In this document: positions 1,262-40,143 of the stretch, piece by piece
How the letters are laid out: every line of letters begins with the position of its first letter
How positions within the stretch are numbered: the stretch's first letter is position 1
DNA from: an uncultured Holophagales bacterium
GTDB taxonomy: Bacteria; Acidobacteriota; Thermoanaerobaculia; Multivoradales; UBA5704
Direction: 5' to 3'
Assembly: GCA_963844885.1 (NCBI GenBank)
Contig: CAWJQA010000018.1
Location: forward strand, 208,675 to 272,674
Length of the DNA: 64,000 nt
Translations under genes and position numbers: made by a program
Notes under the pieces: model-generated
Told to the model about the DNA's origin: nothing
The model's database searches: none
Seen by the model: only the letters and a program-made list of their open reading frames with translations

Positions 1262-1555
1262 TCAAGCGAGAGAGGTTTCTTCAAGCAACCCTCTCAACTC
1301 GTCCGCGGAGACGGTCTTGAGCTTCCCCGAGCGCCTCAGCCGGCGATAGCGATCGTCCACGGCTTCCTGCAAAGCGGCGACCTGCTCTGGAGTCGCGCCA
1401 TATTCATGCTGGGCAAAGTCCTTAGACTCCACTTCCACCTTGCGCAGGGCGATGATGTTTGCCCCCAGGATGATGCCGATATCATCACCGCCGGCGGCAG
1501 CCGTCAGCCAGTGACTCAGGTTCTTCCGTGCCTCCGTGATGGTGAGAGTCTTCAT
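1262..1555 (-). CDS. Phd/YefM-like type II antitoxin, apparently orphan (no toxin ORF downstream)
   Basis: An internal ATG of track ORF 1262..2017 gives 97 aa. MKTLTITEARKNLSHWL... is a typical Phd/YefM N-terminus. The rest of the 251-aa track ORF is low-complexity. Only 43 nt separate its stop from the convergent AbiEii stop. Confidence 0.6.
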   Translation of the reverse strand: MKTLTITEARKNLSHWLTAAAGGDDIGIILGANIIALRKVEVESKDFAQHEYGATPEQVAALQEAVDDRYRRLRRSGKLKTVSADELRGLLEETSLA

Positions 1556-1934
1556 AGAGACGTTATACAGTCTCTCCCCGGGAGGATCAAGCCTCGGCAA
1601 GGGTGCAAGAAGCAACCCGGCTTCGTGCGCCCTGAAAGGGCACAGGCATAGAGCCTGGCGCTTCAGCGCCAGGTCAGAACGCCAAAAACCCACCCCGAGT
1701 CCCGAAAGGGACGCAGGCACGGTGAGCCCGTGGCCGAGAGGAAGGCCGCCGAGCATCGGGGAATCGGCCGCATATCTCTCTTCCGCGACAAGAGACACGC
1801 CTTTCCGAAAGCCCGGATCACCCATTTGGGCGGACGGCGGCGGCCTTGGGCTCGGCGGCCGGCTGTCCTTCTCAGCCTTCAAGGGACCACGCAATCGGGG
1901 CTCCCAGATCGCCAAACCCCCGCCGTTCCTCGTT

Positions 1935-2372
1935 TTGAGCCTCTCGATGAGGGCGACGAGCCTCTCGTCGGACTTCACGAGCCTCTCGACGACTTGGACG
2001 AGCCTCTCATCGAACATTTCGAGCCACTCATTGAGGTCGACGAACCGCTCATCGACCTTGACGAGGCTCTCGTCGACTTCGACGAGCCTCCCATCGACCT
2101 CACGAGCCTCTCGTCAAGCTCGTTGAGCCTCTCGTCAAGCTCGTTGAGCCTCTCGTCAAGCTCGTTGAGCCTCTCGGCGAGCTCGACGAGGGCCTCATCG
2201 ACTTCATCGAGCCGCTCATCGAGGTCGACGAGCCTCTCGTCAAGGTCGACGAGGCTCTCCTCAGACTCGTCGAGGGTCTCGTCGGCCTCACGAACCGCTC
2301 GTCGAGCTCGACGAGCCTCTCATTGAGGACGTTGAGAGCCTCGTCAGACTCGTCGAGCCTCTCGTGAGCCAC
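1935..2372 (-). repeat. Degenerate 21-nt (heptad) tandem repeat region encoding an ERL-type coiled coil on the minus strand, broken by two 1-nt frame changes
   Basis: The motif gagcctctc(g/a)tc recurs about every 21 nt. There are three perfect 21-nt copies at 2104-2166. Minus-strand reading gives ..NELDERLNELDERLNELDERL.. Three track ORFs (2100..2372, the middle frame, and the N-terminus of 1262..2017) join if one nt is restored at ~2288 and one at ~2100. Confidence 0.65.
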
Positions 2373-4902: not shown

Positions 4903-4912
4903 ACAGCGCGCC

Positions 4913-6274
4913 ATGAGCACCACAAAACTGATTGCGTTTCTTCTGGCGCTGACCAGCCTGGCAGGGATGCTGTTTGTCGCTTTCGCATCGGCCGCCATGC
5001 CCATTGTGCTCCGCGACCAGATCTCCGCGCCCCCTCCTCTGGACAAGGCGAGCCCTGGATGCATCGCCTTGTTCGCATTTGTCGCCTGGACCCCCTTGGT
5101 GGCAATACCCGGACTTGTGGGATTCGGTCTCTGGTTTTTTGCTATCCGCAAGCAGGAGGCTGCGGTAGAGCGAGAAGCCGCGACGTTTCCCGAAAAGGAA
5201 ATCGCATTCCAGGCCCGCCTCGACGGCCTCTCCCGACGGTTGCTGGAATGTGGAGGCGATGGCACCGCGCTTGCGCCTGAGATTCCCGTCTGGATACGGG
5301 ATCTCGACGATCTGCAGCAAAGCCGACTGCTCAGCGTGCTTGCCGAAACCAGTCTCAGCACGGCCAACGGGAACGTCGGTTTTCTTTCGAGCCCTGGAAT
5401 CGAGGCGGAAAGAAGTGCGCCGGGTTGTGCTAAGGCCCTCGGCATGGGATTGTTCGTTTTTGCCGGATTCTGTTGGCTCTGGGCCGCGCTCGCGATGTTT
5501 GTGCAGCTCAAAACCTCCCTGGCATCTGTACAAGGTATCGCGCCTAGCCCTGCGACTGCGGTCTACGGAACCTTCGGCTGTTTTGCTCCGGGCTTGGCGG
5601 CGATGATCGGCGGGATCGTGCTCCGTCGGCTGCTCCGGCGAGAAACGGAACGACAAAAACGACGCGAAGCCTTTCGCAATCATGCCCGCGAGATCATGCT
5701 GGAGAGATGTCTTGGTCGCCTGGCACGGCTTTTTTCACATGACAAGGATTCCGCTGCGGCCGAGGAGACTGCAGTCTCCCGGATAGCCCGGGCGGACGTA
5801 GTCTGCACTCTTGCGCAACTGGACGGGCCAGGAAAAGGGCGACTGATCGCCGGGCTTCATGCCGGCGGCTCTCCCTTCCCTTTCTCGCTCGGGCGGGTCG
5901 ACCTGCGGGGCGCCGTCTTCGTGGATGCCGATCTTTCGGGAGCGGATCTCGCCGGCGCAAATCTCTCCGGTTCCCATCTGAGTGGGACCTGCCTGGTCCG
6001 TGCAAACCTTCGCGGCAGTTGTCTCATCGGTGCCGACCTGAGGCGTACCGATGCCACGGAAGCCGTTTTCAGGCAGGCCGACCTCCGGAAGGCTCGGCTG
6101 CATCGGTGCATCCTGCGGCGGGCCGATCTGAGCGGAGCCGACCTGGAAGGAGCGAACCTCTGGCAGGCCGATCTCTCCGGGGCTGATCTCTCCGATGCGC
6201 GTGTGAACGACGCGCAACTACGAGGATCACGAACCGGACTGCTTCCGGATCCCCACGAGGAGGCATTGCCGTGA
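4913..6274 (+). CDS. Membrane protein with C-terminal pentapeptide-repeat domain
   Basis: Internal ATG at 4913 (MSTTKLIAFLLALTSLAG..), 10 nt after the upstream stop. There are several TM-like segments. The C-terminus is ADLSGADLAGANLSGSHLSGTCLVRANLRGSCLIGADLRRTD...ADLSGADLEGANLWQADLSGADLSDARV, which is the classic A(D/N)LxG pentapeptide repeat. Confidence 0.8.
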   Translation: MSTTKLIAFLLALTSLAGMLFVAFASAAMPIVLRDQISAPPPLDKASPGCIALFAFVAWTPLVAIPGLVGFGLWFFAIRKQEAAVEREAATFPEKEIAFQARLDGLSRRLLECGGDGTALAPEIPVWIRDLDDLQQSRLLSVLAETSLSTANGNVGFLSSPGIEAERSAPGCAKALGMGLFVFAGFCWLWAALAMFVQLKTSLASVQGIAPSPATAVYGTFGCFAPGLAAMIGGIVLRRLLRRETERQKRREAFRNHAREIMLERCLGRLARLFSHDKDSAAAEETAVSRIARADVVCTLAQLDGPGKGRLIAGLHAGGSPFPFSLGRVDLRGAVFVDADLSGADLAGANLSGSHLSGTCLVRANLRGSCLIGADLRRTDATEAVFRQADLRKARLHRCILRRADLSGADLEGANLWQADLSGADLSDARVNDAQLRGSRTGLLPDPHEEALP

Positions 6275-6549
6275 AGCCAGCCAGTCGAAATCTCTGGCTT
6301 GAGCTCGCTGCGCTCTGTCTGTTCCTCTTTAGCCTCGTTCTGTTCTTGCTCACAATGTTTTCCGTAGCGACCTTTTTCATGAGCGGTCTTTTGCCCGACG
6401 AGTCGTCGTCGGCGGGAGTCAAGGTGGTGGTCAGCATCGAGGAGGTGCTGGTGGCAGCTCTATCCACCCTTGTTCCCGGCCTGGCCCTGGTCGCGACGGC
6501 CTGGGGACTGCGCTCGCTCCTGGTCGACGAAAAGGAGCCCGACGCATGA
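6271..6549 (+). CDS. Small hypothetical membrane protein (about 3 TM segments)
   Basis: 92-aa ORF with a GTG start overlapping the upstream TGA. Its stop overlaps the next ATG. It has hydrophobic stretches LWLELAALCLFLFSLVLFLL and LVPGLALVATAW. Confidence 0.5.
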   Translation: MKPASRNLWLELAALCLFLFSLVLFLLTMFSVATFFMSGLLPDESSSAGVKVVVSIEEVLVAALSTLVPGLALVATAWGLRSLLVDEKEPDA

Positions 6550-8510
6550 ACGCGGCCGAGTTTCTTGCCGCTCCCTCCCATCTGAGAGCCCTCCGCGATG
6601 CCGTGCTCGCTGTCCAGCGCGAGGTGGCTCCCGAGGAGTGGGAGGTGACGACTGACTACGTAGGGCCGCTAATCGAGTTGGCTGCCCGCGACGAGTTGCC
6701 GACCACCGATACATCTGACGACGCGGGAGGTTTCGGCGCCGCAGACTGGATGCTTCTACCCATCATCTTTATGGTCATGGGCGTCCTGCAGGCTCGCCTG
6801 GAAACCGGAGACACCCGAGACATCACAGAGGCGGAGGTTCGTGGACTGGTGCGCCACAGTGGCTCGCTGCCGGCACGGAAGCTTGTCTCCGAGCTCACGA
6901 GGTCGCTTCAGAAAGCCTTTTCCCAGCACCTGGAAGCCTTCCTCGCGCCCGCTCCGAAGGGAGCCCGGGAAGAGCGCCATACGGACATTTCCTGCCCGCG
7001 CCAGGTCTGGAAAGAGACGCCGAGGTTCAACCTCGTCGTGCGCCTGACCTTGCGGCCGACTCCGTGGAGCGTCGCCCACCGGGCTCTGGACGTCAAAGCC
7101 AGCCAAACGATTCTCGTCTCACTGCAAGCGTCTGCGTTCGACATGCTGACCGCGGCATGCCAGGAAGTATTCCTCCCGCCGGGGCAGGATAGCGCGCCGA
7201 TCGTCTTCGATCTTCGTCCTCGCGAAGCGGGGCCTCAGCGCTTGATTCTGGATTTCTTCCAGGCTTCCCATCCTCTGGGGGCGGTCACCGTGCCCGTGGA
7301 GGTGACCGAGCAGCCTGTCCCGGAATCGCAGATCCAGGTGGCGTCATCTGCCTTCTCCCTCGAATTGGAGATTCCTCCGCCGGATCGGCTCCTGCTGATC
7401 TCCTGGGCCCCAGAGCGGTCGAGTCTGGCCATGAGCCTGATCGCAGGGGGCTCGCTCCAAAACTTCCCTCCTTGGCGGTCGGAGCGCGACCCTGCGCTCA
7501 TGGCCACCCATCTTTTCAATGATTTGAATGCCCTGACCGATGGCTGGGATCCGACGGCTCAGGCCATACGGGGGCAGCAGCGCAGCCTGTCCGCGCAGGC
7601 CATCGACGAAGAGCTGAAGGTAATCGGCCAGAACCTTTGGAGAATTCTGCCCGAGGGATTCCGTAGCCTCTACTCCCGGGAGAAGGAGCGTTGGCGGAAC
7701 AGCAGTCTGCTTATCTACTCCGACGAGCCTCACCTGCCCTGGGAGTTGGTCTGGCCGTACGGAGAGGGGTGGGAAGACGAGGGACCCTGGTGCTCGACGT
7801 TGTGTCTGAGCCGTTGGCTGCGCCAGGATGAGCTGGGGAGTGGCAACGCCGGTCCCCCTGGCCGTCTTCCTCTGACAGCTCTGGCCTGCATCGCCTCCAC
7901 GGACTTGGAGGCCGCTCAGCGGGAGAAGGCTTTCCTGCACGGCTTGCTCGAGCAGCGAGGGGTGCGGGATGTCAGTCCGTCCACTCCTACCCGCGAGGCG
8001 GTGCTGGGTCTGCTGAAATCGGAACCCTGCGACTGGATGCACGTGGCCGCGCATGGCAATTTTCACGCCGATGCCCCTGAGGAGCACTCCGCGCTCTGGT
8101 TGGACGGTCAAGCGATCCTCACCCCCCGGCACATCGTCGGCCCGGCGATCGAAGACCATCTGAGGCAGGCACGCCCGGTGTTTTTCTTCAACGCCTGCCA
8201 CGCCGGCCGTCTCGGTTGGAGTCTCACCCGGATCGGAGGCTGGGCGCAACGCCTGGTCTCCTGCGGCGCGGGCATGTTTCTCGGCCCCCTCTGGGCGGTG
8301 GAGGATGAAAGCGCCTTCCGGGTTGCACAGAGCTTCTACAGGCTCCTGCTCGAAGGGATGACCGTCGCCGAAGCGGCCCGGGAGACCCGCCGGACCGCTC
8401 GCGAGGCCGGGAGCCCGACCTGGCTCGCCTACAGCCTGTATGCCCACCCGAACGCGAAGGTTCTCCTGGTCGCTCCCGAGAACAAGGCTCCTGAGGTTCC
8501 AGGAGCCTAA
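6546..8510 (+). CDS. CHAT-domain (caspase-fold) protease, long form
   Basis: 654 aa. The C-terminal region has DWMHVAAHGNFH (catalytic-His context) and PVFFFNACHAGRLG (catalytic-Cys context) with the spacing typical of CHAT domains. The ATGA overlap couples it to the upstream gene. Confidence 0.8.
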   Translation: MNAAEFLAAPSHLRALRDAVLAVQREVAPEEWEVTTDYVGPLIELAARDELPTTDTSDDAGGFGAADWMLLPIIFMVMGVLQARLETGDTRDITEAEVRGLVRHSGSLPARKLVSELTRSLQKAFSQHLEAFLAPAPKGAREERHTDISCPRQVWKETPRFNLVVRLTLRPTPWSVAHRALDVKASQTILVSLQASAFDMLTAACQEVFLPPGQDSAPIVFDLRPREAGPQRLILDFFQASHPLGAVTVPVEVTEQPVPESQIQVASSAFSLELEIPPPDRLLLISWAPERSSLAMSLIAGGSLQNFPPWRSERDPALMATHLFNDLNALTDGWDPTAQAIRGQQRSLSAQAIDEELKVIGQNLWRILPEGFRSLYSREKERWRNSSLLIYSDEPHLPWELVWPYGEGWEDEGPWCSTLCLSRWLRQDELGSGNAGPPGRLPLTALACIASTDLEAAQREKAFLHGLLEQRGVRDVSPSTPTREAVLGLLKSEPCDWMHVAAHGNFHADAPEEHSALWLDGQAILTPRHIVGPAIEDHLRQARPVFFFNACHAGRLGWSLTRIGGWAQRLVSCGAGMFLGPLWAVEDESAFRVAQSFYRLLLEGMTVAEAARETRRTAREAGSPTWLAYSLYAHPNAKVLLVAPENKAPEVPGA

Positions 8511-8579
8511 CCAACTTCCCGGCTTTGGGGTCTCTATCGGGTGTCGACGCTCGTCCTGGGATGAGAGGAGGACTTTTCG

Positions 8580-10115
8580 ATGCGCCGCATCTCCGAAACC
8601 GCTGTCTTCGTGGCCCTGCTCGCGATTTGGGGCCTGACCCCGTTGCTGATCCTGGGGTTGCTGGTCTTTACTCCGAAGCCGCCCTTGACCTCTCAATTCT
8701 TGTTTTACGCGACGATCGCGTGGTCGGGCGCTTCCGTGGTGCTCTTCGGGATCCTGCTCCACCATGACGACTACTTCGAGAGGCACGGCGTCGAGAGCCT
8801 CATGGGGCTGACCTGCACTCTGGTGGTCGGAATTCCGGCAATGGCCTTCAGCTCCCTTCCTATGGTTGGCTCGCCGGCGGACTTCCTACAAAGCCTGAAT
8901 CCGGAGGGGAACAAGGTTGTCCTTACGGATCTCAAGGCCGATACCAGCAAAACCCTTTACCTGGTGGGAATCGACGTCTCGAAGAGCTTCGTCGAAGGCT
9001 CGTCCGATCCACGGTTGGACGAGGTCTTCACCGCGTTTGATTCGTTCTTCTACCCCATCACCCCGGATTCCTTCGCGGCATCCCAGGGCAACGAGGACGC
9101 GTTGCATGCCTATGTGTTTGCGAAAGACTATCAAGACGTGCTCACCATCAACGATGCCCTCGAACGCCGGCAGCAGATTCCCGAGCGCAGGAATCGCGTC
9201 AATGCCAGCTTTTCCAAGGTCGACCGGAGCACCACCAATCTAGTCGGGTTCTTGAACGATCGCGTCTGCGGCGAAATCGAAACGTTTGGGAAGAAATTCG
9301 ATGACATCAAGGTGATCATCTTCTCGGATTGGATCCAATCCCAGCCTAAAGAGGGGCGTGAGGCCTATCTCCAGGATCAGAAGAGCCGCCTCAAGACGTT
9401 TCAGGATTGTGCCAGGCACGGGAACGTCACATTCCTGGAGCTTCGGGCTCCTTCGCGGAAGAACAGCGAGCCGCAGGCGGACGACGCGGACGCGGATATC
9501 GGCAAGCAGCTCCGCTACAGCCTCGGAGAGGAACGGTGGCAGCACCTAGACCTCCAGGCCTACAACGAGGCGAGTGCCGAGGAGAGGCCGACGCTGCCGG
9601 CCCTTGTCTACTCCAACCACAATCCTTCCGAAAGCATCTATCTTAAGTATCTACCCGACCCCGGGTGGAAGCCCTTCACCTCCCGGATCTACCTTCCGGG
9701 CACCGAGCATTCGGAGAAGCTGTTCATCTCGTTCCGTCCCCTAACTCCAGACGCCTCGCCGGTACGCGTCTATCTCAAGCCCGGCAACAGCGACGAGGTC
9801 GTGATCGACATGAACGAGCAGGACAGGGCCACTCAGATCACGACCGAGAGCGGCCCTCTCCAACTCAGGCTTGCCCAGCGGACCCCCGGCTCTCGGGACG
9901 CGCACATTGAAATGCTCGTCGTGGCTCCTCGGACATCCACGGTGTACCGAATCCCCGTCGTGGTGTTGCCAGTGATGCGGGAGGACGCTCTCAAACTCCT
10001 AAAGCTCGTCATCTTCGCCATGCACCTTCTCCCGGTGGTCCTGGCCGTCAGGATTTTCCGCAGCCGGGCGCAGCGGCTTCGTGAGAAGGCCGCGCCCACC
10101 CCCACTGTTGTATGA
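8580..10115 (+). CDS. Multi-TM protein with vWA-like domain (MIDAS DxSxS = GIDVSKS) and C-terminal TM anchor
   Basis: 511 aa. The N-terminus has 3-4 hydrophobic segments. LYLVGIDVSKSF (DxSxS), TNLVGFL and VIIFSDW are spaced as in a vWA fold. The C-terminal hydrophobic segment is LKLVIFAMHLLPVVLAV. Confidence 0.65.
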   Translation: MRRISETAVFVALLAIWGLTPLLILGLLVFTPKPPLTSQFLFYATIAWSGASVVLFGILLHHDDYFERHGVESLMGLTCTLVVGIPAMAFSSLPMVGSPADFLQSLNPEGNKVVLTDLKADTSKTLYLVGIDVSKSFVEGSSDPRLDEVFTAFDSFFYPITPDSFAASQGNEDALHAYVFAKDYQDVLTINDALERRQQIPERRNRVNASFSKVDRSTTNLVGFLNDRVCGEIETFGKKFDDIKVIIFSDWIQSQPKEGREAYLQDQKSRLKTFQDCARHGNVTFLELRAPSRKNSEPQADDADADIGKQLRYSLGEERWQHLDLQAYNEASAEERPTLPALVYSNHNPSESIYLKYLPDPGWKPFTSRIYLPGTEHSEKLFISFRPLTPDASPVRVYLKPGNSDEVVIDMNEQDRATQITTESGPLQLRLAQRTPGSRDAHIEMLVVAPRTSTVYRIPVVVLPVMREDALKLLKLVIFAMHLLPVVLAVRIFRSRAQRLREKAAPTPTVV

Positions 10116-10136
10116 CTGAGCCCCGCAGGAGGACCC

Positions 10137-12296
10137 ATGCCCCGCCCAAGACCCGCGCGCCGGGACCGGATCGCCGTCGCTCTGCTGGGGATCGCTCTCG
10201 CGGCTCCCCAGCTCGTCTCCGCCCAGGAAACCGCCGTCGCCGACGCGGTGGTCATCGTGGACACCTCCGTCAGCATGCGCGATCCGGGCATGGACCCGGA
10301 GCGCGCCTCTCTCCTCGTCACCAAGCTGCTGTCCGACATCGTCCCCGGCGACCTGGCGGTCGTCCGCCTCCTGGATATCGGCGCCGACAGGGATGTCATC
10401 CCAAGCCGGGAGACGAACGATCAAATCCCGTGCGTGGACAACCCCGGGCAGATGTGTACGCGCGTCGAGCAGGCCATCGACTGGCAGGATGCCGCGCGAC
10501 GCCGCAAGCTGGGAGCCCTCGTACGCCCCTCCCGCGGTGACGCCGATTACAAGCGCCAGCTCGAGAGCCACCTGGAGCAGCGCATCAACAACAGCATGTT
10601 CTATCTCGCCTTGCGCGCCGCCCAGGGCGTATTCGACGAGCATGGCAAGGCCGGAGCTCCGCGGACGGTGGTCTGGCTCTCCGACGGCCGGTCGGACAAC
10701 CCTCCAGTCACCGATCAGGCCATCCGCGAGCTCACCCGGAGCGGAGTGGCGGTGGCGGCCATCGTCTTCGGCCAGGGCGACACGTCGCTCGCCCGCGACG
10801 CCGGCCTCGACGTGGAGCAGGTGTCCAGCCCCGCCGAGATCATGAAGGCGTTCGCCAACGCTTTCCGCCGCATCGTGCAGGCCCCCTACAAGATTGACAA
10901 CCAGGTGTCGGTCCAGCCGGAGTTCGAGATGAAGGCCGCCGTGGACGAGGCGTGGGTGGTGGTCTACGGTGACGACTCTCTCGGCGAGGTCTTTCTGGAA
11001 GGCCCTGCCGGACGGGTCGACGCCAACCATGCCGCTGACCGCTGGCGGGGCGCTGGCGCCTACCGTGTCGCCTATCTCCGAAAACCGGCGCCGGGCCGCT
11101 GGACCGTGCGCGCCTCTGGCGGCGGACCCGGCGTGGCCTATGCCGTGGTCCAGCGCTCCTCCCTCGCCCCCGTGCTCCTGGAGCCGGCCAAGGCCATCTC
11201 CGGCGTCCCCGTGCCCCTCGTCGCGGGCCTCCGTGCCGGCTCGAACGGCGGAATCGTGACCGATCCGGCCGTGCTACGTGGGTTGGAGGTCACCGCGGAG
11301 GTGCAGGGGAAGAATGTGAGGCTCTCGGACGGCGGAACGGCTGGCGACGTCAAGGCCGGCGACGGGCGCTTCACCGGTATGGTCACGTTCCACGGCTCGG
11401 GGAAGGTACCCGTCCGCATTCGCGCCCGAAGCGATCTCCTCGACCGGTCGGCCGACGCGTCCGTGGAGACCTCCGGCAGCTTCCGCTACACCGGCGGCCC
11501 GCCGGAGATCGACCTGGGAACGTTGGCCGCGGGCTTCGAATCGTGCCGGCCCCTGATCCTTCAGGCCGAGCACAAAGGAGAGGTGCCGTTCGAGCTGTTG
11601 GAGCGCAAGAGCCCGCCGTCCGGACACCGCCTGGAGATCCGGACCCCAGGCGGCAAGCTCATCCCGGACGGCGACCCCGTCGCCGTCGCCTCGGGAAACC
11701 GCCTGGAAGTGTGCCTGACCACCTCCGATCGCTCCCCTTCCTCAAAGGCGGAAGGGGAGCCCTGGCTGGAGCTGAGGGTGGCGGAGAGCGAGCGGCCCGA
11801 GCACCGCGTGGAGATCCGGCTGCGCTGGGAGGTGCGGGGGCTTTCGTTCTGGCAACGCTGGGGCTGGCTGATCCTGCTGATCCTCGCGATCCTCGCGGCG
11901 CTCTTCATCATCCTCGGATTCGTGCTACCGCAGCGCTTCTCGGGCACCCTGGCGGTCACCTACGTGCCCGACCGCGCGGAGCTCGACGAGCAGTCGCCGC
12001 AGCCCGTGAAGCAGTGGAGCGGGGTCCGCATCGGCTTCTACCGCAACGCGCGCGCGTTCCTCCATGCGGACTTCCGGCTGTCGGGTAAACCACAGGGCGC
12101 GGTTGCGTGTCTCTATGCGGAGAGAGGCGGTGCGCGGGTGACTCCCGGACGCGGCCTCTCGCTTTACCGGGAGACGTTGGAAGGAGACTGGGAGAGCGTC
12201 TCGGCGGACGGCAGGCGCGCAAGGGCCGGCGACGTGTTCCGCATCGGGGACCGGGGACCTTACTTCCGCATCACGACACATCGGGGGAGAGGATGA
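10137..12296 (+). CDS. Secreted/periplasmic vWA (MIDAS) domain - beta-rich region - single TM - small cytoplasmic tail domain
   Basis: 719 aa. It has a signal-peptide-like N-terminus (..VALLGIALAAPQLVSAQE), then VVIVDTSVSM (DxSxS) and VVWLSDGRSD. The TM segment is WGWLILLILAILAALFIILGFVL. The tail is FYRNARAFLHADFRLSG...GDVFRIGDRGPYFRI. Confidence 0.8.
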   Translation: MPRPRPARRDRIAVALLGIALAAPQLVSAQETAVADAVVIVDTSVSMRDPGMDPERASLLVTKLLSDIVPGDLAVVRLLDIGADRDVIPSRETNDQIPCVDNPGQMCTRVEQAIDWQDAARRRKLGALVRPSRGDADYKRQLESHLEQRINNSMFYLALRAAQGVFDEHGKAGAPRTVVWLSDGRSDNPPVTDQAIRELTRSGVAVAAIVFGQGDTSLARDAGLDVEQVSSPAEIMKAFANAFRRIVQAPYKIDNQVSVQPEFEMKAAVDEAWVVVYGDDSLGEVFLEGPAGRVDANHAADRWRGAGAYRVAYLRKPAPGRWTVRASGGGPGVAYAVVQRSSLAPVLLEPAKAISGVPVPLVAGLRAGSNGGIVTDPAVLRGLEVTAEVQGKNVRLSDGGTAGDVKAGDGRFTGMVTFHGSGKVPVRIRARSDLLDRSADASVETSGSFRYTGGPPEIDLGTLAAGFESCRPLILQAEHKGEVPFELLERKSPPSGHRLEIRTPGGKLIPDGDPVAVASGNRLEVCLTTSDRSPSSKAEGEPWLELRVAESERPEHRVEIRLRWEVRGLSFWQRWGWLILLILAILAALFIILGFVLPQRFSGTLAVTYVPDRAELDEQSPQPVKQWSGVRIGFYRNARAFLHADFRLSGKPQGAVACLYAERGGARVTPGRGLSLYRETLEGDWESVSADGRRARAGDVFRIGDRGPYFRITTHRGRG

Positions 12297-14578
12297 AACG
12301 AATTCTGGCGGCCACCACCGTGCTTCTCAGCCTTGCCGCCGCGCCGGCCGCGGCGGACGAACACGTGCGCGTGGTCCTGGACCTCTCGAAGTCGATGCTC
12401 AAGAACGATCCGGGCAGGATGGCGCTCCTGTCGACGGTCCTGCTCCACGACTTGGCGCGGCCCAACTCCACGCAGGGCGATACGTTCAAGGTCATTCCTT
12501 TCGCGCAGGACTGGCGCTGGAGCGATCCCGCGGCTCCGCCTCCCATGGGCAACCGGCCCCAGATTGTAGCGGTGCATGAGAAGCGTGCCGATTTCGTGAA
12601 GCAGGTTCTGGGGCTGAGCTACGACGCCAACATGACCTATTTCTATCCGGGGCTGCTGGAGGCCGTGGCGGACCTGGAGCGCACCACCGGCAGCACCTCG
12701 GGCGTGCGGGCCATCGTCCTGGTGACGGACGGGGTTCCTGAATCGAAGACCCGCGACCGGGAGCTGGAGCTCATCCAGAAGCAAATTGGGCCGCGTTTGG
12801 GAAAGGCGAATATCCGCCTGTATGTGCTGGCGTTCGGCACGGAGGCGTTCGGAAACCAGGAGTTCTTCCGCAAGATCACCACGGCCGCCTCGGGGCCGCT
12901 GGGCGAGCCGTTCTTCGACCCGCAGGGCCGGGAGCTGCTGAGCAACATGCTGACGATCTTCTCCCGCACCTTCGGCTACTCGAAGGGTGCGCTCCAGCGC
13001 CTGCCCGGTGCCCGGGTGGTGGATCTGGAGGGGTCGATCACACCGGAGACCTCGGTGGCGGTCGTGCTCTCGGATCAGACTCAAGCTGAGCCGTCCCTGC
13101 GGTTGACACCTCCGGCTGGCGGTGCCGTGAGCTCGCCGGACGGCGTGCGGAGCGCCGCCGCGGACGGGGGGAGCTACTCGCTGCAATGGGTCCTGAGTCC
13201 CAATGCGGGGCCTTACAGTCTGGATACCAGCGCGGTACGGGGGAGCGTTGCCGTGCTGCGGCCGGTCCAGCTCACCCTGGAGGTGCTCCCCGTGCCGCCC
13301 CGGAACCAGACGGAGCGGGCCATCGCAGGGATGCCGTTCCCGCTGATTATCCGTGTCAAATGGCCGAACGGCGCCAAGGGCGCTCCCAATCCCGTGGATC
13401 TCTCGTTCCGGACGGTCTCCGGACGGTTCAGGACGGAAGATGGCAAGACAGACTTCCGCTGGAAGAGCAAGGTCGAGGCACCTCCTGCCGGACAGGGAAA
13501 CGTCACTGCGGAAGGCCGGGAGTACAACATCTTGGTCAATTTCGCCGAGCACCCGGAGCACCCGGAGCAGCCCTACGCGGGCTACCTCAAGGTGTACGCC
13601 CGCAATAGCGACCAAGTGCTGGGAAAGGCTGTAGGAAGAGTGGTGGGATCGCTGGAGGGCGACCGGGCGCACCGGGTGGAGGTGCATCCGCGGCTCGCCA
13701 TCACCCCCGTGCTGCTCAGCGACTACGCGAAACGGCCCAACGCCGCCCAACAAGGCCTGGGACGGCGCGAAGAGGGATGCGCTGATGTCCGCTTGGAAGT
13801 CTCGGGTTATCTCCCCCACTCCGGCAAGCCGTCCTACCCACTCCTGGCGCGGATCACCGCCACCGACCCCGCCATCTTCGACCGCGAGTTGCGCCGGGCG
13901 TCGTTCACGCTGGATGGCAAGCAACTGGAAATCGAAGGCAAACCCGCGGATGAGCGGGGGCCTTGGAGCAAAGGCCTCATGCTCACGAAGGAGAAGCTCG
14001 AAGGGAATCACAAGCTCTGCGTCCGCGTCGGCAGGCCGACCGTCGGCAATCCGGCGGCCCAGGTGTCGCTGGCGTTCACGCTCCAGGAGGATCCCTACGA
14101 CGACTTCGGCGTGGTGAAGCCGTTTGTCCTCAAGGTGCCGGTGGCGGAGCCGACGTTCCTGGAGCGGTGGAAGGCCCTGCTGCTGACGGGGCTGGCGCTG
14201 CTGGTACTCGCGGCGCTCCTCTGGTACTCGCGTGCGCGGCCCGGATTCCCTCCGGACATGGCCTACGCCGTGGGCCGGGAAGATGCGGAGGATCTCGTAT
14301 CCCGCCCTTTGGAGGAAGGCTCGCCCATTCCCAATCTCCTCGGCCTCGTCGCTGAGCGGCCGGTGATCGCGGGCACGGAGGACCGCTTGCTGGGCCGCGT
14401 GCGTCCCGTGAACGAAGAGCTTTACCAGATGCGCCCCGCCCGCGGCTTCCGTGTCGAGCCGGTGGGCCGGGAGGAGCCGATCCCGATGCGGCGCGGGCTC
14501 GCCACGTTGGCCGCCCGGAGGCTCTACCGCCTGCGCGGCGAGGACGGCTCGTACCTCTTCCGCCTGGAGTACCAATGA
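12293..14578 (+). CDS. Secreted/periplasmic vWA (MIDAS) domain - beta-rich region - single TM - cytoplasmic tail
   Basis: The internal ATG 12293 overlaps the upstream TGA (ATGA). MKRILAATTVLLSLAAAPAAADE looks like a signal peptide. VRVVLDLSKSM (DxSxS) and AIVLVTDGVPES follow. The TM segment is WKALLLTGLALLVLAALLWY. Confidence 0.8.
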   Translation: MKRILAATTVLLSLAAAPAAADEHVRVVLDLSKSMLKNDPGRMALLSTVLLHDLARPNSTQGDTFKVIPFAQDWRWSDPAAPPPMGNRPQIVAVHEKRADFVKQVLGLSYDANMTYFYPGLLEAVADLERTTGSTSGVRAIVLVTDGVPESKTRDRELELIQKQIGPRLGKANIRLYVLAFGTEAFGNQEFFRKITTAASGPLGEPFFDPQGRELLSNMLTIFSRTFGYSKGALQRLPGARVVDLEGSITPETSVAVVLSDQTQAEPSLRLTPPAGGAVSSPDGVRSAAADGGSYSLQWVLSPNAGPYSLDTSAVRGSVAVLRPVQLTLEVLPVPPRNQTERAIAGMPFPLIIRVKWPNGAKGAPNPVDLSFRTVSGRFRTEDGKTDFRWKSKVEAPPAGQGNVTAEGREYNILVNFAEHPEHPEQPYAGYLKVYARNSDQVLGKAVGRVVGSLEGDRAHRVEVHPRLAITPVLLSDYAKRPNAAQQGLGRREEGCADVRLEVSGYLPHSGKPSYPLLARITATDPAIFDRELRRASFTLDGKQLEIEGKPADERGPWSKGLMLTKEKLEGNHKLCVRVGRPTVGNPAAQVSLAFTLQEDPYDDFGVVKPFVLKVPVAEPTFLERWKALLLTGLALLVLAALLWYSRARPGFPPDMAYAVGREDAEDLVSRPLEEGSPIPNLLGLVAERPVIAGTEDRLLGRVRPVNEELYQMRPARGFRVEPVGREEPIPMRRGLATLAARRLYRLRGEDGSYLFRLEYQ

Positions 14579-16926
14579 CCCGTCCCGCGGCGCGCCTGCT
14601 TCTGCTTGCCGCTCTGGCCTGCCCTGCCGGAGCCTGGGCGGAGGGTCGCCACATCGCGATCGTCCTCGACACGTCGGGCTCCATGGATTCCAACGATCAG
14701 CCCCGGTACACGGTGCAGCTCTCACAGGTGATCTCCGACCTGCTGAACGACGGCGACGAGCTCAACGTGATCCGCATGAAGGACGATTCGTCCTGCTCCG
14801 CCGGCGCCTCGTCGTCCCTCGCCTTCACCCTGGACCCGGGGGACCGGCAGAGCTTCAAGCGGCGCCTGGACCAGGAGATCGCCTACGAGACGGGTACCTA
14901 TTTCGCGGCGCCGATCCGCACCGCGGCGGCCCTGCTCTCCGGTAGCCCGGACTCGCAGCGGATGCTCCTGGTAATCGCCGACTCCGGCGGCCTAGGCTCG
15001 TGCGAGGACGAGCTCACGCGGATCCTCCTGGACCTGAGGCAGAAGGGGGTCACCGTCGCGGCGATCAACCTGGGAGGCACGGCGGGCGCATTCGACAGCA
15101 ACCCGGCCTTCGCCTTCACCACGTCCGCCCTGGACGCCCAGGGCCTGATCGAAGCCGTGGCTCAGGTCTACCAGAAATTCCTCGGCGCGAAGACGGTCCA
15201 GACCGGCCGTGTGCAGGGCCCGATCGAGGTAGATGTCGCGCCATTCGTGGACGAGGCGTTCCTGGTGGTGGCCGCCGACGGTCCCCTGAGCGCCGTCGAG
15301 CCGGCGGGCGGCAACCCCGGCGCTGCGGCCGTCGACCCCGACCACCGCGGCGGCGGAAGCACCCAGGGCCTGGACGGCCGGACCCGCGCCTACCGCATCG
15401 TGCGGCTGGAGCGGCCGGCCCCGGGACGCTGGACGTTCAACGTCCCCGGCCTGTCCGCAACCGCGGGCTGGATGCTGCTTCAGGACTCGTCCGTGGGGCT
15501 GCGCCTGGTGTCGTCCCCAGACATGCCTCGCGGTATCGCTACTCCCATGGAGGTCGAGGTCTTCGACCAGAAGACCGGCAAGCGCATCACGGATCTGTCG
15601 CAACTGCCGGGCCTGAGCGTCACGCTCGACGTGGATGGGAAAAAGGTCACGTTTCAGGACGGCGGACAGGACGGCGACCGCGTACCGGGAGACGGCATCC
15701 TGACGGCCATGACCACCCTCGACCAGGCCGGCGCGCGCAAGCTTCCAGTACGCCTGGAGAGCGACCTCCTGGACCGCACGGTGGAGGTCGAGACCCGGGT
15801 TCTCGACGCGGCCTGGAGCCTCGCCGTGAAGACGCCGCCGAAGGCTACGGTGGACCATCCCGTGCTTCTTGAGGTAGAGCTGAAACCCTTCGGTGATCCG
15901 TCCCGGCTCAAACCGCCCGAGCGCATTGACGCGCTCACCGGCGGCCCGGCGGTAGGCCTGCGCGACGACGGTTCGGAGGGAGACCGCACGGCCGGAGACC
16001 GGATCTACTCGCGCCGCTGGATACCCGCGGAGGTGGGCAGCTTCAAAGTCGAGTACGCACCCATCGGCGGGAGCACCTCTCTGCGCGGCGCCGCTCCGAT
16101 CGAGGTGTTGGGCCGGCTGGACTTCGGACCCCTGCGCCCCATCCGGCTCGGGCAGGCTTGCAGTGGAGCCGAAGTGGGTGACCGCCTGGAGCTCGGCGCG
16201 GCCACCGTCCGCGGTGGCTTCGACGCGACCGTGAGCAGCTCGTTCGAGCTCGACCGGACGGCGCTGGAGATCGACCTCGGCGACGGCTGGGTGCTGCTCG
16301 GGAGCAAGCCCCTGCCGCTACGTCTGACCGAGAGCGGTCCCCGTGCCTGGCCGGTGCGGCTGCGGGTCGGCTCCTGTCCGGAAGGGAACCCGAAGGGTAG
16401 GCGGTTCGACATTGTCCTCGAAGCCGCCGGTCCGGACGGCAAGCCGCTGAAAGCCAACGTTCCGCTGGAAGTGGTCGTGATCGAGGATCCATGGCTGCGC
16501 TGCTGGTGGCCGGTGCTGGCCGCCGGAGCCGGCATCGTGCTGGCCGGCGTCCTGGTGCATGGGTTCTGGTCGCCGTCGCGCTTCTCACCCCGTCTGGGCG
16601 TGACCCTCTCGCCGGAGGAGGACTTGACCGAGGGCTTCTTCCATCCCATCCGCGCCCAGCGAGGCACGGGAAGTGGCTTCTACAGGGACGCGCGGGTGTT
16701 CATCCGCCAGGACTTCCGCCTCTCGGGCAACGCTCGTGAAGCCCTGGCGCGTCTGCGTGCCGATCACAAGCTGGTGCGGATCCAGCCGGTCCACGGCACC
16801 GCGCTCTGGCGCCAGAACGCCGAGGGAGCCTGGGAGCAGGTGCCGCCCGCCGAGACCACCGCCCGCTTCGGCGACCTCTACCGCAACGACACGGGAACGC
16901 TGTTTTTCGAGATTCGGAACGCCTGA
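14575..16926 (+). CDS. Secreted/periplasmic vWA (MIDAS) domain - beta-rich region - single TM - cytoplasmic tail
   Basis: 783 aa with an ATGA overlap to the upstream gene. The signal peptide is ..LLLLAALACPAGAWAEG. IAIVLDTSGSM is a canonical DxSGS MIDAS, followed by MLLVIADSGG. The TM segment is WWPVLAAGAGIVLAGVLV. The tail FYRDARVFIRQDFRLSGNAREALARL...GDLYRNDTGTLFFEI is paralogous to that of the 10137 gene. Confidence 0.85.
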   Translation: MTRPAARLLLLAALACPAGAWAEGRHIAIVLDTSGSMDSNDQPRYTVQLSQVISDLLNDGDELNVIRMKDDSSCSAGASSSLAFTLDPGDRQSFKRRLDQEIAYETGTYFAAPIRTAAALLSGSPDSQRMLLVIADSGGLGSCEDELTRILLDLRQKGVTVAAINLGGTAGAFDSNPAFAFTTSALDAQGLIEAVAQVYQKFLGAKTVQTGRVQGPIEVDVAPFVDEAFLVVAADGPLSAVEPAGGNPGAAAVDPDHRGGGSTQGLDGRTRAYRIVRLERPAPGRWTFNVPGLSATAGWMLLQDSSVGLRLVSSPDMPRGIATPMEVEVFDQKTGKRITDLSQLPGLSVTLDVDGKKVTFQDGGQDGDRVPGDGILTAMTTLDQAGARKLPVRLESDLLDRTVEVETRVLDAAWSLAVKTPPKATVDHPVLLEVELKPFGDPSRLKPPERIDALTGGPAVGLRDDGSEGDRTAGDRIYSRRWIPAEVGSFKVEYAPIGGSTSLRGAAPIEVLGRLDFGPLRPIRLGQACSGAEVGDRLELGAATVRGGFDATVSSSFELDRTALEIDLGDGWVLLGSKPLPLRLTESGPRAWPVRLRVGSCPEGNPKGRRFDIVLEAAGPDGKPLKANVPLEVVVIEDPWLRCWWPVLAAGAGIVLAGVLVHGFWSPSRFSPRLGVTLSPEEDLTEGFFHPIRAQRGTGSGFYRDARVFIRQDFRLSGNAREALARLRADHKLVRIQPVHGTALWRQNAEGAWEQVPPAETTARFGDLYRNDTGTLFFEIRNA

Positions 16927-16953: not shown

Positions 16954-19900
16954 ATGAGTGAGAACGGAGAATACCGCAGCGGTCAGGGCACCATCATTCC
17001 CAGGCTGTTCATCGGCCTCGGGGGCGTGGGCTCGCGGATCGTCGACCGGATCGCCGGACGGACGGCCTACCTGCCCAACTGGGAGAGCCAGCTTCGCCCG
17101 CTCACCAACTTCATCTCGATCGACACCAACGAGCTCGACCAGCACAAGCTCAAGCATGTGCCGGACGGCAACCGGTTGAACATCGCCGCGTTCGACAAAG
17201 CCAAGGCCATCGAATACCTGCGGCGCTCCAAGGATCCGCAGGCTCTGCAGTGGCTGGACCGTGGATATCAACCGCGCCCGGTTTCAAGCCTGGCGCCGGC
17301 CAGATCCGGGTGGAAGCGCGCCTCGGCTTTTTCTATCACTCCCTGGAGATCCGCCAGCGCATCAAGGAGCTGATCCATGAGACGCTGCGCCCCGGCATCA
17401 CGTGGCGGCAGTCGAACCCGCCGAAGTACAACGTGTATCTGTTCTGCACGCTCGCCGGCGGCACCGGCTCCGGCAGCTTCCTCTCGGTGGCCTATCTGAT
17501 CAACGCACTGCTAGGCGAGCAGGGGTGGCAACCCCGGGTCATCGGCAACCTGCTTCTGTCCACGCTGATGCTGGACCAGGTCGGCCCCGAGCTCCACCCC
17601 GACATCCACGCCAACACCTACGCGGCGCTCAAGGAGTTGGAGCACCTCACCAAGCTCGACTACAAGCAGGTGAAGGACGAAGGCCGTGTCTCCGATCAAT
17701 TCGTCTACTGCCGGGACGAGAACAACCGGGCGGTGCAGAACGTCGCAACGCGTCCGTTCTTCCTGTCGTTCGTCTTCGACCGTCCCGCGCACCTCGGCCT
17801 GCCGAATCCCGAGACGGCCATCGCGGACGCGGCGTTTCTCCAGATCTTCACGCCGATCATCGACAACCTGGCCGGCGAGCTCGACAACTACGAGAAGAAC
17901 CTCGAGGGACTGACGCGCTTCCCCGGCGATCTCAAGAACGTAGGCCTTGGCTATACCAAGAACTTCGGAGCGTTCGGCGCCGCCGCTCTGGTGCTGCCCG
18001 GCCACGACTTCCTGGAGTACGCCGTGGCGCGCTTCGCCGCGCAGGCGATCCGCAGCCAGATCACCTTCGGCGCCGATCCGGCCAACCCCGGCGACGATCG
18101 GGCGCGCGCCCTGGCGCGGCTGGCGGTCGACTACTCGGACCCCAAATTCCTCAACATGTCGGACGAAGGGCGGGAGCGGACGATCAACCAGTCGTTCCTC
18201 TCCTCGGTGCAGGAGATGGCCCGCCAGGACGAGCGGCAGGAGCTTCTGGAGGGCTACTGGTACCGGCTGGCGGAGTCGGTCGACCAGGGCCGCAAGACCG
18301 GCGTCGACGACAAAGGCGAGGAGGTCCGCGGCGAATCGCAGATCCGCTGGGTAGAGCGCAAGCTGGAAGAGACCCGCCGCGACCTGCTCAACCGGGTGTC
18401 GATCAAGGAGAGGGCGTTCGTCTTCCACCGCGAAGGAGTGAACCAGTACGTGGAGCTGGTCAGCCGGCTGATCGAGGACATCCGGGGCGCGCGCCAGATC
18501 GTGGACGAAGGGGTGCGCGGCCTGGAGGCCGCCGCCCTCGAAGGCGAGGTCGTCTCCGAGCTGAAGCTCGATCCAATCGCCGAGCGCTACCTGGCGATCC
18601 GGCTGCTCGACCGTTGTGAGCAACAGTGGATCCCCGAGGCCCAGCAGCAGCTCGAAAAGGCCCGCGCCCGTGACATCGGCAACCCCAAGGTCCGCGAGCG
18701 GCTGGAGCGCGAGCTCTTCGAGTCGCTCCAGGAGGCGGCCTCGAAACGCGCGATCTTCAACCGTGATCAGGCGTTCCTGAGCGTCCGCGACGAGGCCCAG
18801 GAATACTTCCGCAGCGTGGCCACCGCGGCCCGCAATACCTTCGACGCGGAGATCCGGCTGCGGCAGCTCCGGTCCCTCCTGGAGTACCTGCAGCGCCGTT
18901 CGCGGCAGTACGCCCGGCTCGCCACCCGCATGGACGCTCTGGTGCAGGATCTGGAGCGCGACGCCGAACGCCTGCGCCGCGGCGAAGCCGCCGTGGTCGC
19001 TCCGCTCGCCCTGCGCGTCGAGGTCTTCGAGACGCTCGACGAGCCCCACCGCCGCATCTGGGACCGCGTCTACCTGGCGCTCTTCGTCGAGGGTGGGCGC
19101 TACATGGCCACCTTCGACCGCCAGGCGCTCGCTGAGACCATCTCCCGCGAGCTCAAACCGGTCGTACGCGGCGACGGTACCGTGACGGAAAAGACCCTGG
19201 ACCAGACGGTCAACGACCTGCGCCGCGCCCTGCGCGAGTTGGGCGCTCAGCGGCTGCGCCCGGCCATCCTCGGCGGCGACGGGCAGCCCGGGCTCGACCT
19301 CGTGCGCGGGTTGGAGCTGGAGGGCCGCTTGATCCTCCAGCCCGGCAAGCCGCCGGGCCAGGAGGTCACCGAGGACGAAATCGACGAGTACCGCCGCAAG
19401 AAGTTCCGCGCCCTCGCCCAGGTGGCCGGTGTGCTGGCCCGGGTCAGCTCCACCGAGACCAAGGCCCTGGACGACGGCGTGAAGACGAACCGCACCCGCC
19501 AGCTCATCGTGGGCATCGGCGCCGGCGGCGGCACCGCCTCCCAGCGTTTCGTCGACGAGCTCAACGCCGTACTGGCGACGAGCGGCCGGCAGGTCAAGGA
19601 GGACGAGTGGCACGATCCGCGGATCGCCATCGTCCACGACGTGGAGATGCCGATCCCGCTCTACTACATAGAGCCGGTGACCTCCGAGATCGAGGACGCC
19701 TACCTCGCCCTCGCCGCGGACGAGCGCCGCGCCTACAACCTCCACACGGACTACAACTGGGAACGGTCGCTGCCCAATCTGAACCCCCGCCGTTCGGAAA
19801 TCACCGTGGGCTGGTCGCTGCGCATGCTCGCCGAGGGCCTCCTCACCCACGTCGTCGGCCGGCAGGACGGCTTCTGGGTCTGGCAGATCGACGGCAGCGG

Positions 19901-20246
19901 CGAGGTCGAGCGGCTCGGACGAAACCTGTCGAGCACCCTCTACCGCCTGGGCGAGATCCACCGCATCGAGGATCTCCAGAAGAGGTTGGAGGCGCGGCTC
20001 CGCGAGGCGAAGTCGCTGGTGGACTTCGCGCGGGAGGAGCAGCGGCGCAAGGAGATCCGCGAGCTCGCTGACTCGCTCCTCGCCGCCATGGGCCGGCGCG
20101 AACTGCACGGAGAGATGGCCCGCGAGGACAGTCTGGACCGCCCGATCCTGCGCGCCCTGCTGCAGGAGCTCGACCGTCCGGGCGACGACAGGACTTCGAT
20201 GGCCTCCCCCGATGAACGGCTCTACGAAGGGTTGCGGCTCCCGTGA
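16954..20246 (+). CDS. Giant tubulin/FtsZ-superfamily GTPase (Tubulin_2-like N-domain plus ~700-aa helical/coiled-coil extension); one frame break near 17272 as sequenced
   Basis: Track ORF 16954..17373 gives RLFIGLGGVGSRIVDRI (a GxGxxG nucleotide loop). Track ORF 17250..20246 gives GAGQIRVEARLGF and FCTLAGGTGSGSFLSV, the tubulin signature GGTGSG at 17457-17474. The two frames join at ..WLDRGYQP/APGFKPGAGQ.. if one nt is restored in caacc-gcg (17269-17276). Confidence 0.8.
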
Positions 20247-22738: not shown

Positions 22739-22740
22739 CC

Positions 22741-31111: not shown

Positions 31112-31114
31112 AAT

Positions 31115-34402: not shown

Positions 34403-34413
34403 TTTCGAATCGA

Positions 34414-36908: not shown

Positions 36909-36917
36909 GCCGCAAGC

Positions 36918-38084: not shown

Positions 38085-38087
38085 CTC

Positions 38088-39744: not shown

Positions 39745-39840
39745 GTCTCCTCCCTTCCTCGGGATGGAACCTCGGTGCTCCTATATAGTCACCAGCCGCG
39801 GCAGAAGGTTTAGTCTGGATCGAGGTTCCGTCACCGCCGC

Positions 39841-40065: not shown

Positions 40066-40143
40066 CGCATCGCTCGGAGACGTTGCCGGCCAAGACGGGG
40101 AGGATGCCAAAGGGAAGATTGGCGTTGCGTGGCGGGGTGAAAC

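Follow-up and report, generated by a model that had tools for sequence, protein, structure and literature searches.

This analysis concerns 64,000 nucleotides of DNA (hereafter the window) from an uncultured Holophagales bacterium of the Thermoanaerobaculia (NCBI GenBank assembly GCA_963844885.1, contig CAWJQA010000018.1, positions 208,675 to 272,674 of the forward strand), and within it a tightly packed run of genes on the plus strand from 8580 to 29641. Three consecutive genes of this run, named here after their first positions 10137, 12293 and 14575, encode putative membrane-anchored receptors with a von Willebrand factor A (vWA) domain and are followed by the gene for a tubulin-like GTPase (Table 1). 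The original prediction, made from the DNA letters and their open reading frames, had described four consecutive vWA proteins with a metal ion-dependent adhesion site (MIDAS), three of which would share a receptor-like topology and a small cytoplasmic tail loosely recalling a forkhead-associated (FHA) domain. Our results retain three of the four vWA proteins, assign two of the three tails to one homologous family with a predicted FHA fold, and place that family on other exported proteins as well.

Each of the three genes reads as a signal peptide, a vWA domain, a beta-rich stretch, a single transmembrane segment and a tail, in the order that had been predicted, with tails of 115-123 amino acids (aa). 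Their N-termini are basic and then hydrophobic and end in an AxA-type site, and the motifs DTSVSM (10137), DLSKSM (12293) and DTSGSM (14575) lie at about residues 31-45, directly after the signal peptides and together with the first vWA strand. The stalk that follows the vWA domain comprises about 360-425 aa of beta-rich sequence, transmembrane heuristics find one strong late hydrophobic segment in each product, and the tails begin about 12 residues past that segment. Start and stop codons overlap as ATGA at 12293, 14575 and 27959 and as GTGA at 20243; Shine-Dalgarno-like sequences precede 8580 and 10137 (GGAGG) and 16954 (GAGGAG). Because ATGA overlaps imply translational coupling, 10137, 12293 and 14575 would be co-translated, and we read the three as translationally coupled paralogues.

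The vWA assignment is best anchored in 14575, whose product matches Pfam VWA_2 above the cut-off (E-value = 5e-8) as well as VWA (8e-6) and whose family profile matches vWA domains in the PDB, including BatB and aerotolerance-protein structures. The vWA families of 12293 and 14575 align to each other with an hhalign probability of 98.7% (E-value = 5e-16), and the N-terminal domain of 10137 aligns to both with probabilities of 97% and 96%. All three contain the complete MIDAS set, namely DxSxS, a later Thr or Ser (in GTYF, MTYF and NSMF, respectively) and an Asp after strand beta-4 (in ADSGG, TDGVPE and SDGRS), and D32, S34, S36 and D136 are invariant in the 14575-family alignment. By profile and motif, then, the products of 10137, 12293 and 14575 are vWA proteins with a MIDAS. 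Database searches returned 110 relatives of the 14575 product and about 120 of the 12293 product, mainly from Thermoanaerobaculia metagenome-assembled genomes (MAGs) but also from Methylovulum, Candidatus Kentrum and other Gammaproteobacteria. The same anatomy recurs among the roughly 100 full-length members that we counted per family (99 for 14575 and 112 for 12293): a signal-peptide-like N-terminus is present in 89/99 and 104/112, exactly one late transmembrane segment in 89/99 and 101/112, and the median position of DxSxS (34 and 31) and median tail length (122 and 116 aa) are close in the two families.

Gene 8580, the fourth vWA protein of the original prediction, fared differently. Its product has three N-terminal transmembrane segments, a predicted external domain, a C-terminal transmembrane segment (residues 474-492) and a short basic tail, so the multi-spanning N-terminus and the GIDVSKS motif that had set it apart are both there, and the pattern D132-x-S134-x-S136...T219...D250 is invariant among its 6 homologues. 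Its identity as a vWA protein could not be demonstrated: Pfam gave no match to the product or its 6 homologues at E≤5, a PDB profile search found none, and hhalign against both vWA families gave a probability of 1.4%, with the alignment in register. As none of these searches returned significant similarity, we rejected 8580 as a demonstrable vWA and keep it as a candidate divergent one. A homologue is absent from the 25 loci of other genomes described below (L001-L025) and lies directly upstream of the cassette only among close relatives (L026), from which we infer that 8580 is a lineage-specific accessory outside the widely conserved cassette.

For 10137, 12293 and 14575 we predict a type I topology, with the vWA domain outside and the tail inside. 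This agrees with what had been proposed, and several lines of evidence point the same way: the signal peptides, the single stop-transfer segment, the charge bias of the 14575 family and its cysteines. In that family Lys and Arg average 0.58 before the transmembrane segment and 1.98 after it, which supports a cytoplasmic tail, and Cys74, Cys143, Cys601 and Cys643, which lie in the ectodomain and at the start of the transmembrane segment, are nearly invariant; such ectodomain cysteines are consistent with export. A lipoprotein signal in 14575 was also considered and rejected, as Cys16, which is not a conserved residue, falls outside a canonical lipobox.

The tails of 10137 and 14575 had been called paralogous, and they are indeed 40% identical over 115 aa (BLASTP E-value = 2e-24); we treat them as one homologous type, type A. 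An AlphaFold2 (AF2) model of the 14575 tail built from 38 sequences is all-beta, with a mean predicted local distance difference test (pLDDT) of 91.1 and a predicted template-modelling score (pTM) of 0.84. When this model was searched against the PDB with Foldseek, the top 24 matches were all FHA domains (probability 0.99-1.00, E-values 2e-3 to 4e-2, template-modelling (TM) scores 0.44-0.69), among them APLF, KIF1A, Rv0020c/FhaA, Ki67, CEP170 and MDC1; the SMAD MH2 domain, of the same fold class, ranked lower. The best E-value stays above 1e-3. On these models we consider the FHA fold of the A-type tails solid.

At the sequence level the picture is another one. Pfam FHA (PF00498) and Yop-YscD_cpl (PF16697) matched 0/38 A-type and 0/40 B-type tails (the latter are introduced below) at E≤10, and a PDB profile search with the A-tail family found no FHA domain. 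The verified FHA sequence of Rv0020c was set against the family alignment of 99 tails at the positions that bind phosphothreonine (pThr). The column equivalent to the FHA Ser is S in 55, T in 16 and A in 20 of the 99 tails (S or T in 71/99, 72%), and there is no conservation at the FHA His and Asn positions. Among the arginines, R43 is kept in 96/99 tails and many others are invariant, but R43 is not securely the FHA Arg because a forced alignment sets F41 opposite it. The A tails lie outside the FHA sequence family, with the pThr-binding residues not kept as a set, much as the original prediction had sensed in an FHA-like sandwich lacking them.

The tail of 12293 stands apart, and the idea of one tail domain common to all three receptors holds for two of them at the sequence level, because the third has no detectable similarity to the others. 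BLASTP was negative and two hhalign runs of the 12293 tail, here type B, against type A gave probabilities of 8.9% and 0.5%, so we rejected homology of the two types and treat B as a separate family. The AF2 model of the 12293 tail (pLDDT 88.7, pTM 0.80) is a small beta-sandwich whose first six strands share their order and spacing with type A, and its only matches with TM-scores of 0.4-0.5 are FHA domains (2lc1, MDC1 and APLF). From the models, a fold common to the B and A tails is plausible.

The A-type tail is not confined to vWA receptors. A search of 1.84 billion proteins with its profile yielded 214 cluster representatives, with the match at the very C-terminal end in almost every case, and 61 of the 77 full-length representatives are of the vWA type, with DxSxS near the N-terminus. 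The remainder have other signal-peptide-bearing ectodomains followed by a late transmembrane segment and the tail: TPR-CHAT proteins (P0304, P0315, P0360; loci L027-L031), IgGFc-binding proteins (P0268; L032, L033) and ectodomains of unassigned type (P0242; L034). No Tubulin_2 gene was found near the non-vWA genes in the available flanks of 9-10 kb (L027, L029, L032, L034). The P0360 gene converges on a Pkinase-TPR gene and adjoins a MoxR-DUF58-vWA operon. Downstream of P0242 come two TPR-CHAT genes and genes for a Ser/Thr kinase, an FHA-FHA-ABC transporter, a PP2C phosphatase and a further FHA protein. Because the tail occurs on other ectodomains with no Tubulin_2 nearby, it does not look like a dedicated tubulin adaptor, and we rate a general receptor output or anchor module, made up of the transmembrane segment and the A tail, above a tubulin-specific adaptor. 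The chimeric relative P0227 (752 aa) is 12293-like over its N-terminal ~60% and 10137-like in its C-terminal stalk, transmembrane segment and tail, the last of type A (E-value = 7e-15), which suggests recombination between receptor paralogues. With about 214 sequence clusters, the A-tail family can be viewed as a small domain family that lacks annotation, and as a portable cytoplasmic module for several exported domains.

To place the receptors in a wider context, we scanned one genome per species and obtained 25 loci (L001-L025). The conserved order is a 10137-type, a 12293-type and a 14575-type gene, then Tubulin_2, then a 20243-type, a 22717-type and a 25654-type gene, and it is kept in about 19 loci, those with enough flank. 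We found it in Thermoanaerobaculia, Bryobacterales, Terracidiphilus, Competibacteraceae, Methylumidiphilus and Lamprocystis purpurea DSM 4197, and also in an unclassified Pseudomonadota MAG; in Thiodictyon (L015) the cassette is present without the 10137-type gene. Hidden Markov models (HMMs) of both tail types revealed a strict A-B-A pattern of tails in 20 cassettes, the window included. In L007, L013 and L014 a fourth receptor, an extra copy of the 14575 type with an A-type tail, sits between the third vWA gene and Tubulin_2. Lamprocystis purpurea DSM 4197 (L019) has insertions between the vWA genes and Tubulin_2 at 5637-9551 and 12788-14782, which encode a UvrD-like helicase, an ADP-ribosylglycohydrolase-glyoxalase fusion and a GmrSD-type restriction endonuclease, a pattern like that of defence islands.

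The tubulin-like GTPase that had been placed immediately downstream of the receptors is there: gene 16954 belongs to Pfam Tubulin_2. In the window it is split into two frames by a 1-nucleotide deletion at 17278-17279, in the run CGC-CC-GGT, which we mapped against the orthologue of L026; the latter is intact, 1096 aa long, and reads ...YQPR-A-GIKPGAGQ... at this site, and in 19/19 related loci Tubulin_2 occupies a single frame. Either the consensus sequence is wrong here or the gene has very recently become a pseudogene. The C-termini of the orthologues (window ~20100-20243; L003-L021) consist of a conserved helix (LDRPILRAL), some 20 residues of variable linker and, at the very end, a brief aromatic or hydrophobic motif such as LYEGLRL, LFQQFDF or GYRLEL. 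This layout resembles the C-terminal docking peptide of FtsZ, which in FtsZ binds its membrane tethers.

Farther along the cassette, the 22717 product matches the C-terminus of YprA in the PDB (1.7e-4) and, as read from its translation, has a hydrophobic N-terminal region. We rejected a second tubulin in 20243 or 22717, as hhalign was negative against a Tubulin_2 alignment that covers the tubulin domain from about residue 100 onward; a resemblance to the N-terminal G-box may still exist. The products of 25654-26889 and 26856-27962 are charged and repeat-like and look like coiled coils by eye, and the 25654 gene is conserved in related loci. In the 27959 product the DO-GTPase2 domain occupies about residues 315-473. 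A PADLOC search of the cassette proteins found no defence-system model except for a weak DruE-like match on the MZB region. The Hanks kinase motif had 0 matches in the 64-kb window and 0 inside any cassette locus, with one match outside the cassette in L012.

Table 1. Coordinates of the receptors, their parts and the adjoining cassette genes in the window. Nucleotide positions count from the first letter of the window and residues from the start of each product.
Feature	Nucleotides	Strand	Residues	Evidence or remark
vWA receptor 1, A-type tail, 719 aa (gene 10137)	10137-12296	+		open reading frame, profile, transmembrane heuristics
Signal peptide, 10137			1-29	site VSA/QE (AxA-type)
vWA/MIDAS domain, 10137			~35-250	DTSVSM
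Choice-of-anchor-X motif in stalk, 10137			396-430	NCBIfam choice_anch_X, 2.5e-7
Transmembrane segment, 10137	11868-11924		578-596	
Tail, predicted FHA fold, 10137	11925-12293		597-719 (123 aa)	tail-A HMM, E-value = 1.6e-27
vWA receptor 2, B-type tail, 761 aa (gene 12293)	12293-14578	+		open reading frame, profile, transmembrane heuristics
Signal peptide, 12293			1-21	site AAA/DE (AxA-type)
vWA/MIDAS domain, 12293			~22-260	DLSKSM
Transmembrane segment, 12293	14174-14230		628-646	
Tail, B-type, 12293	14231-14575		647-761 (115 aa)	
vWA receptor 3, A-type tail, 783 aa (gene 14575)	14575-16926	+		Pfam, alignment, PDB profile, AF2
Signal peptide, 14575			1-22	site AWA/EG (AxA-type)
vWA/MIDAS domain, 14575			~25-215	DTSGSM
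Two choice-of-anchor-X motifs in stalk, 14575				NCBIfam
Transmembrane segment, 14575	16501-16557		643-661	
Tail, predicted FHA fold, 14575	16558-16923		662-783 (122 aa)	
Tubulin_2/FtsZl1-type GTPase, long helical C-terminal extension	16954-20246	+		Pfam Tubulin_2, 2e-32; PF13809 on both pieces
Cassette protein, 831 aa, two central transmembrane segments, no recognisable domain	20243-22738	+		conserved position
Cassette protein, 974 aa, C-terminal MrfA-type Zn-binding (MZB) domain	22717-25641	+		Pfam PF09369, 2.3e-7
Protein without significant Pfam/NCBIfam family	25654-26889	+		
Protein without significant Pfam/NCBIfam family	26856-27962	+		
DO-GTPase2 P-loop GTPase, 560 aa, last cassette gene	27959-29641	+		PF19993, 29.3 bits (cut-off 27)
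Accessory protein with four transmembrane segments, 511 aa (gene 8580)	8580-10115	+		transmembrane heuristics, 6 homologues

Several other genes of the window lie around the cassette. Directly upstream, at 2794-8510 (+), are a multi-spanning M48-like HExxH peptidase with a Cys-rich C-terminus, a transmembrane pentapeptide-repeat protein and a CHAT protease, all three outside the conserved unit. This M48/CHAT pair is echoed by a second one, in which an M48-like peptidase at 44779-46914 (-) (3.5e-6) is divergent from a CHAT-domain protein at 46958-47998 (+) (8e-11). At 91-1218 (+) and 1262-2017 (-) we found an AbiEii-family nucleotidyltransferase toxin gene (Pfam 2e-30) and an adjoining open reading frame with a weak Phd/YefM-like match, and seven large open reading frames (270-856 aa) at 30343-44248 (-) have no Pfam match at E≤0.001.

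Taken together, we propose that the three receptors are type I inner-membrane vWA paralogues that form the membrane-spanning arm of a tubulin-like cassette of about 20 kb, with their tails docking cytoplasmic partners, and we put the probability of this reading at roughly one half. The cassette would consist of the three vWA proteins, the Tubulin_2 (FtsZl1) GTPase, two transmembrane proteins, two proteins without a recognised domain and the DO-GTPase. The vWA heads would lie in the periplasm and may use their metal site to bind a ligand, either a protein or a part of the envelope. The tails would lie in the cytoplasm and serve as modules for peptide docking, recruiting or organising partners there, so that an event outside could be coupled to assembly of the cassette's cytoplasmic NTPase machinery. 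The partner of the tails might be the short conserved C-terminal peptide of Tubulin_2, a cytoplasmic domain of the 20243 or the 22717 product, or a site that has been phosphorylated. Docking of this kind does not demand phosphorylation, since FHA domains can bind partners without it, as GarA/OdhI do with their target enzymes and as YscD-type FHA domains do, and GarA/OdhI is among the fold matches of the A tail. Contact between a tail and the Tubulin_2 protein, drawn here by analogy, is plausible as a possible role of the tails but not their only one.

Several points weigh against this reading. The predicted type I topology comes from heuristic scans at the gene and family level, and in the 12293 family the count of Lys and Arg is neutral, 2.5 before and 2.5 after the transmembrane segment. 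The FHA matches of the B tail are weak (best 2lc1, E-value = 0.34, probability 0.77, TM-score 0.42-0.46), so that an identical fold for A and B is not demonstrated. The occurrence of the A tail in loci without Tubulin_2 makes it unlikely that a tubulin-specific role is general, and with its Tubulin_2 gene frameshifted the cassette may be inactive in this genome. A more elaborate version of the proposal would be an integrin-like outside-in device in which MIDAS-vWA receptors sense a periplasmic ligand such as phage or envelope damage, FHA-fold tails nucleate or anchor FtsZl1 filaments, the DO-GTPase serves as a switch and the transmembrane segment with its tail is a hitherto unrecognised portable output module, shared with exported CHAT proteases and ectodomains of the IgGFc-binding type; we regard this as speculative and doubtful.

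The FHA fold itself raises another explanation, that the A tails are true pThr readers and the receptors nodes of phosphosignalling, with an unlinked Hanks-type Ser/Thr kinase phosphorylating a cassette component or some other protein. The near-invariant R43 (96/99), the Ser or Thr at the Ser-equivalent column (71/99) and the many other invariant arginines would fit such a role, as would the kinase genes that adjoin the A-tail genes P0360 and P0242, the latter also with PP2C and FHA neighbours; further, protein kinases are frequent in vWA/FtsZl1 operons, as the account of that family has it (PMC2875224). Yet those adjacencies are few, amounting to two loci, and the Hanks motif is missing from the 64-kb window and from the inside of the cassette loci, with the sole match outside the cassette in L012. 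The tails themselves also argue against it: none of the 38 matched Pfam FHA or Yop-YscD_cpl at E≤10, His and Asn are not conserved, Ala takes the Ser position in 20%, and the register of the Arg is ambiguous, with F41 opposite the FHA Arg in the forced alignment. It would seem unlikely, therefore, that the A tails read phosphothreonine.

Rather than recruiting soluble partners, the tails might join the three receptors into a hetero-oligomer or associate with anionic lipids, so that the vWA proteins form an adhesion or scaffold complex of the periplasm only. The strict A-B-A stoichiometry and the translational coupling do suggest an obligate hetero-complex, the tails lie about 12 residues past the membrane and are rich in invariant arginines, the FHA domains of TIFA and MDC1, both fold matches, are known to mediate oligomerisation, and the A tail is joined to unrelated ectodomains outside tubulin cassettes. 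What such a complex explains poorly is the phylum-spanning linkage to five cytoplasmic or transmembrane proteins, two GTPase families among them, and a folded, well-conserved domain of 120 aa exceeds what a lipid anchor needs, which leaves this explanation rather improbable in our judgement. We give even less credence to decay of the locus in this genome, whereby Tubulin_2 would be a pseudogene and the vWA genes would here be without transmembrane coupling. The 1-nucleotide deletion at 17278-17279 does split the gene, and the 19 related loci and L026 are all intact; however, a single deletion in a GC-rich CCC run of an 820-kb contig is typical of an assembly or consensus error, the other cassette reading frames are full length and similar to their orthologues, and the two tubulin pieces, which share 86-90% identity with the orthologue of L026, show no other lesions.

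A membrane-spanning arm with FHA-fold tails can be set beside several known systems. The A tail shares with FHA domains a beta-sandwich of the 11-strand type, with APLF, KIF1A, Rv0020c and Ki67 as its best fold matches. Non-canonical, membrane-tethered cytoplasmic FHA domains occur in YscD/EscD of type III secretion systems and in EssC of type VII secretion systems. As in YscD, the A tail would face the cytoplasm on a protein that spans the membrane once and is largely external, and it does not keep the pThr residues; it differs in being C-terminal to the transmembrane segment (type I), whereas the domain is N-terminal in YscD, in showing no sequence-profile membership and in forming a small family of 214 clusters. 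With integrins the receptors share a MIDAS-vWA head, an Ig-like stalk, a single transmembrane segment, a cytoplasmic tail, paralogous subunits and, in the genome, an adjoining gene of a cytoskeletal family. We intend this as an analogy and nothing more: apart from the vWA fold there is no evidence of a shared ancestry, any cytoskeletal partner is putative, and unlike the short peptide of integrins the receptor tail would be a folded FHA-like domain. BatA and BatB are membrane-anchored bacterial vWA proteins too, and BatB and aerotolerance vWA domains are among the few PDB sequence matches; the receptors differ from them in their long beta-rich stalk, FHA-fold tail and topology, and no MoxR or DUF58 gene accompanies them in the cassette. 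A Bat/MoxR-type system was ruled out, there being no MoxR or DUF58 gene in the window.

The closest precedents are genomic. The FtsZl1 family was defined by Makarova and Koonin 2010 (Biol Direct 5:33; PMC2875224), who described it in operons with vWA proteins whose MIDAS is intact, a subset of these having signal peptides or transmembrane segments, and also with a divergent P-loop GTPase, transmembrane proteins, protein kinases and OmpA-like proteins; they predicted a membrane-associated system and proposed a role in membrane remodelling. A reviewer of that paper asked by what means vWA proteins in the periplasm might work together with a tubulin homologue in the cytoplasm. The window resembles these operons in that Tubulin_2 adjoins three vWA genes, with a GTPase at 27959-29641 and the transmembrane protein 20243; neither an OmpA-family gene nor a protein kinase was found in its cassette by Pfam or the Hanks-motif scan. 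That paper calls the domains fused to vWA mostly uncharacterised, and we found in it no description of a type I topology, an FHA-fold tail or an A-B-A triad. Kaur, Burroughs, Iyer and Aravind 2020 (eLife 9:e52696; PMC7159879) placed tubulin/vWA neighbourhoods among the GAP1-N2-type DO-GTPase conflict systems and described membrane-bound vWA proteins with an external vWA domain. The cassette has in common with these a DO-GTPase2 GTPase, a tubulin with a helical C-terminal extension, membrane proteins with external vWA and beta-rich domains, and conflict-type neighbours (CHAT and AbiEii in the window, GmrSD and a UvrD-like helicase in L019). No GAP1 Pfam family was found at E≤0.01 in the cassette proteins or the small open reading frame at 29638-29967, and no FNIII repeats (Pfam fn3) in the cassette proteins, whose stalks instead carry choice-of-anchor-X motifs. 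The DO-GTPase sections of PMC7159879 contain no mention of an FHA-like tail that we could find.

The cassette therefore belongs to the known vWA/FtsZl1 and tubulin/vWA DO-GTPase class, and the association of its genes has already been described (PMC2875224; PMC7159879). Comparative genomics brought FtsZl1/Tubulin_2 systems to light in 2010, our literature search found no experimental study of them, and the cultured carriers Lamprocystis purpurea DSM 4197 and Methylovulum psychrotolerans make experiments feasible. Within the class, the window differs in its Gram-negative lineages, in having no detectable GAP1 or FNIII and in its receptor triad with predicted FHA-fold tails, and the new points are the FHA-fold tail family and its modular use. 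For this widespread Gram-negative version, single-pass vWA proteins with a cytoplasmic FHA-type domain would offer a concrete and testable answer to the objection that the reviewer raised in 2010.

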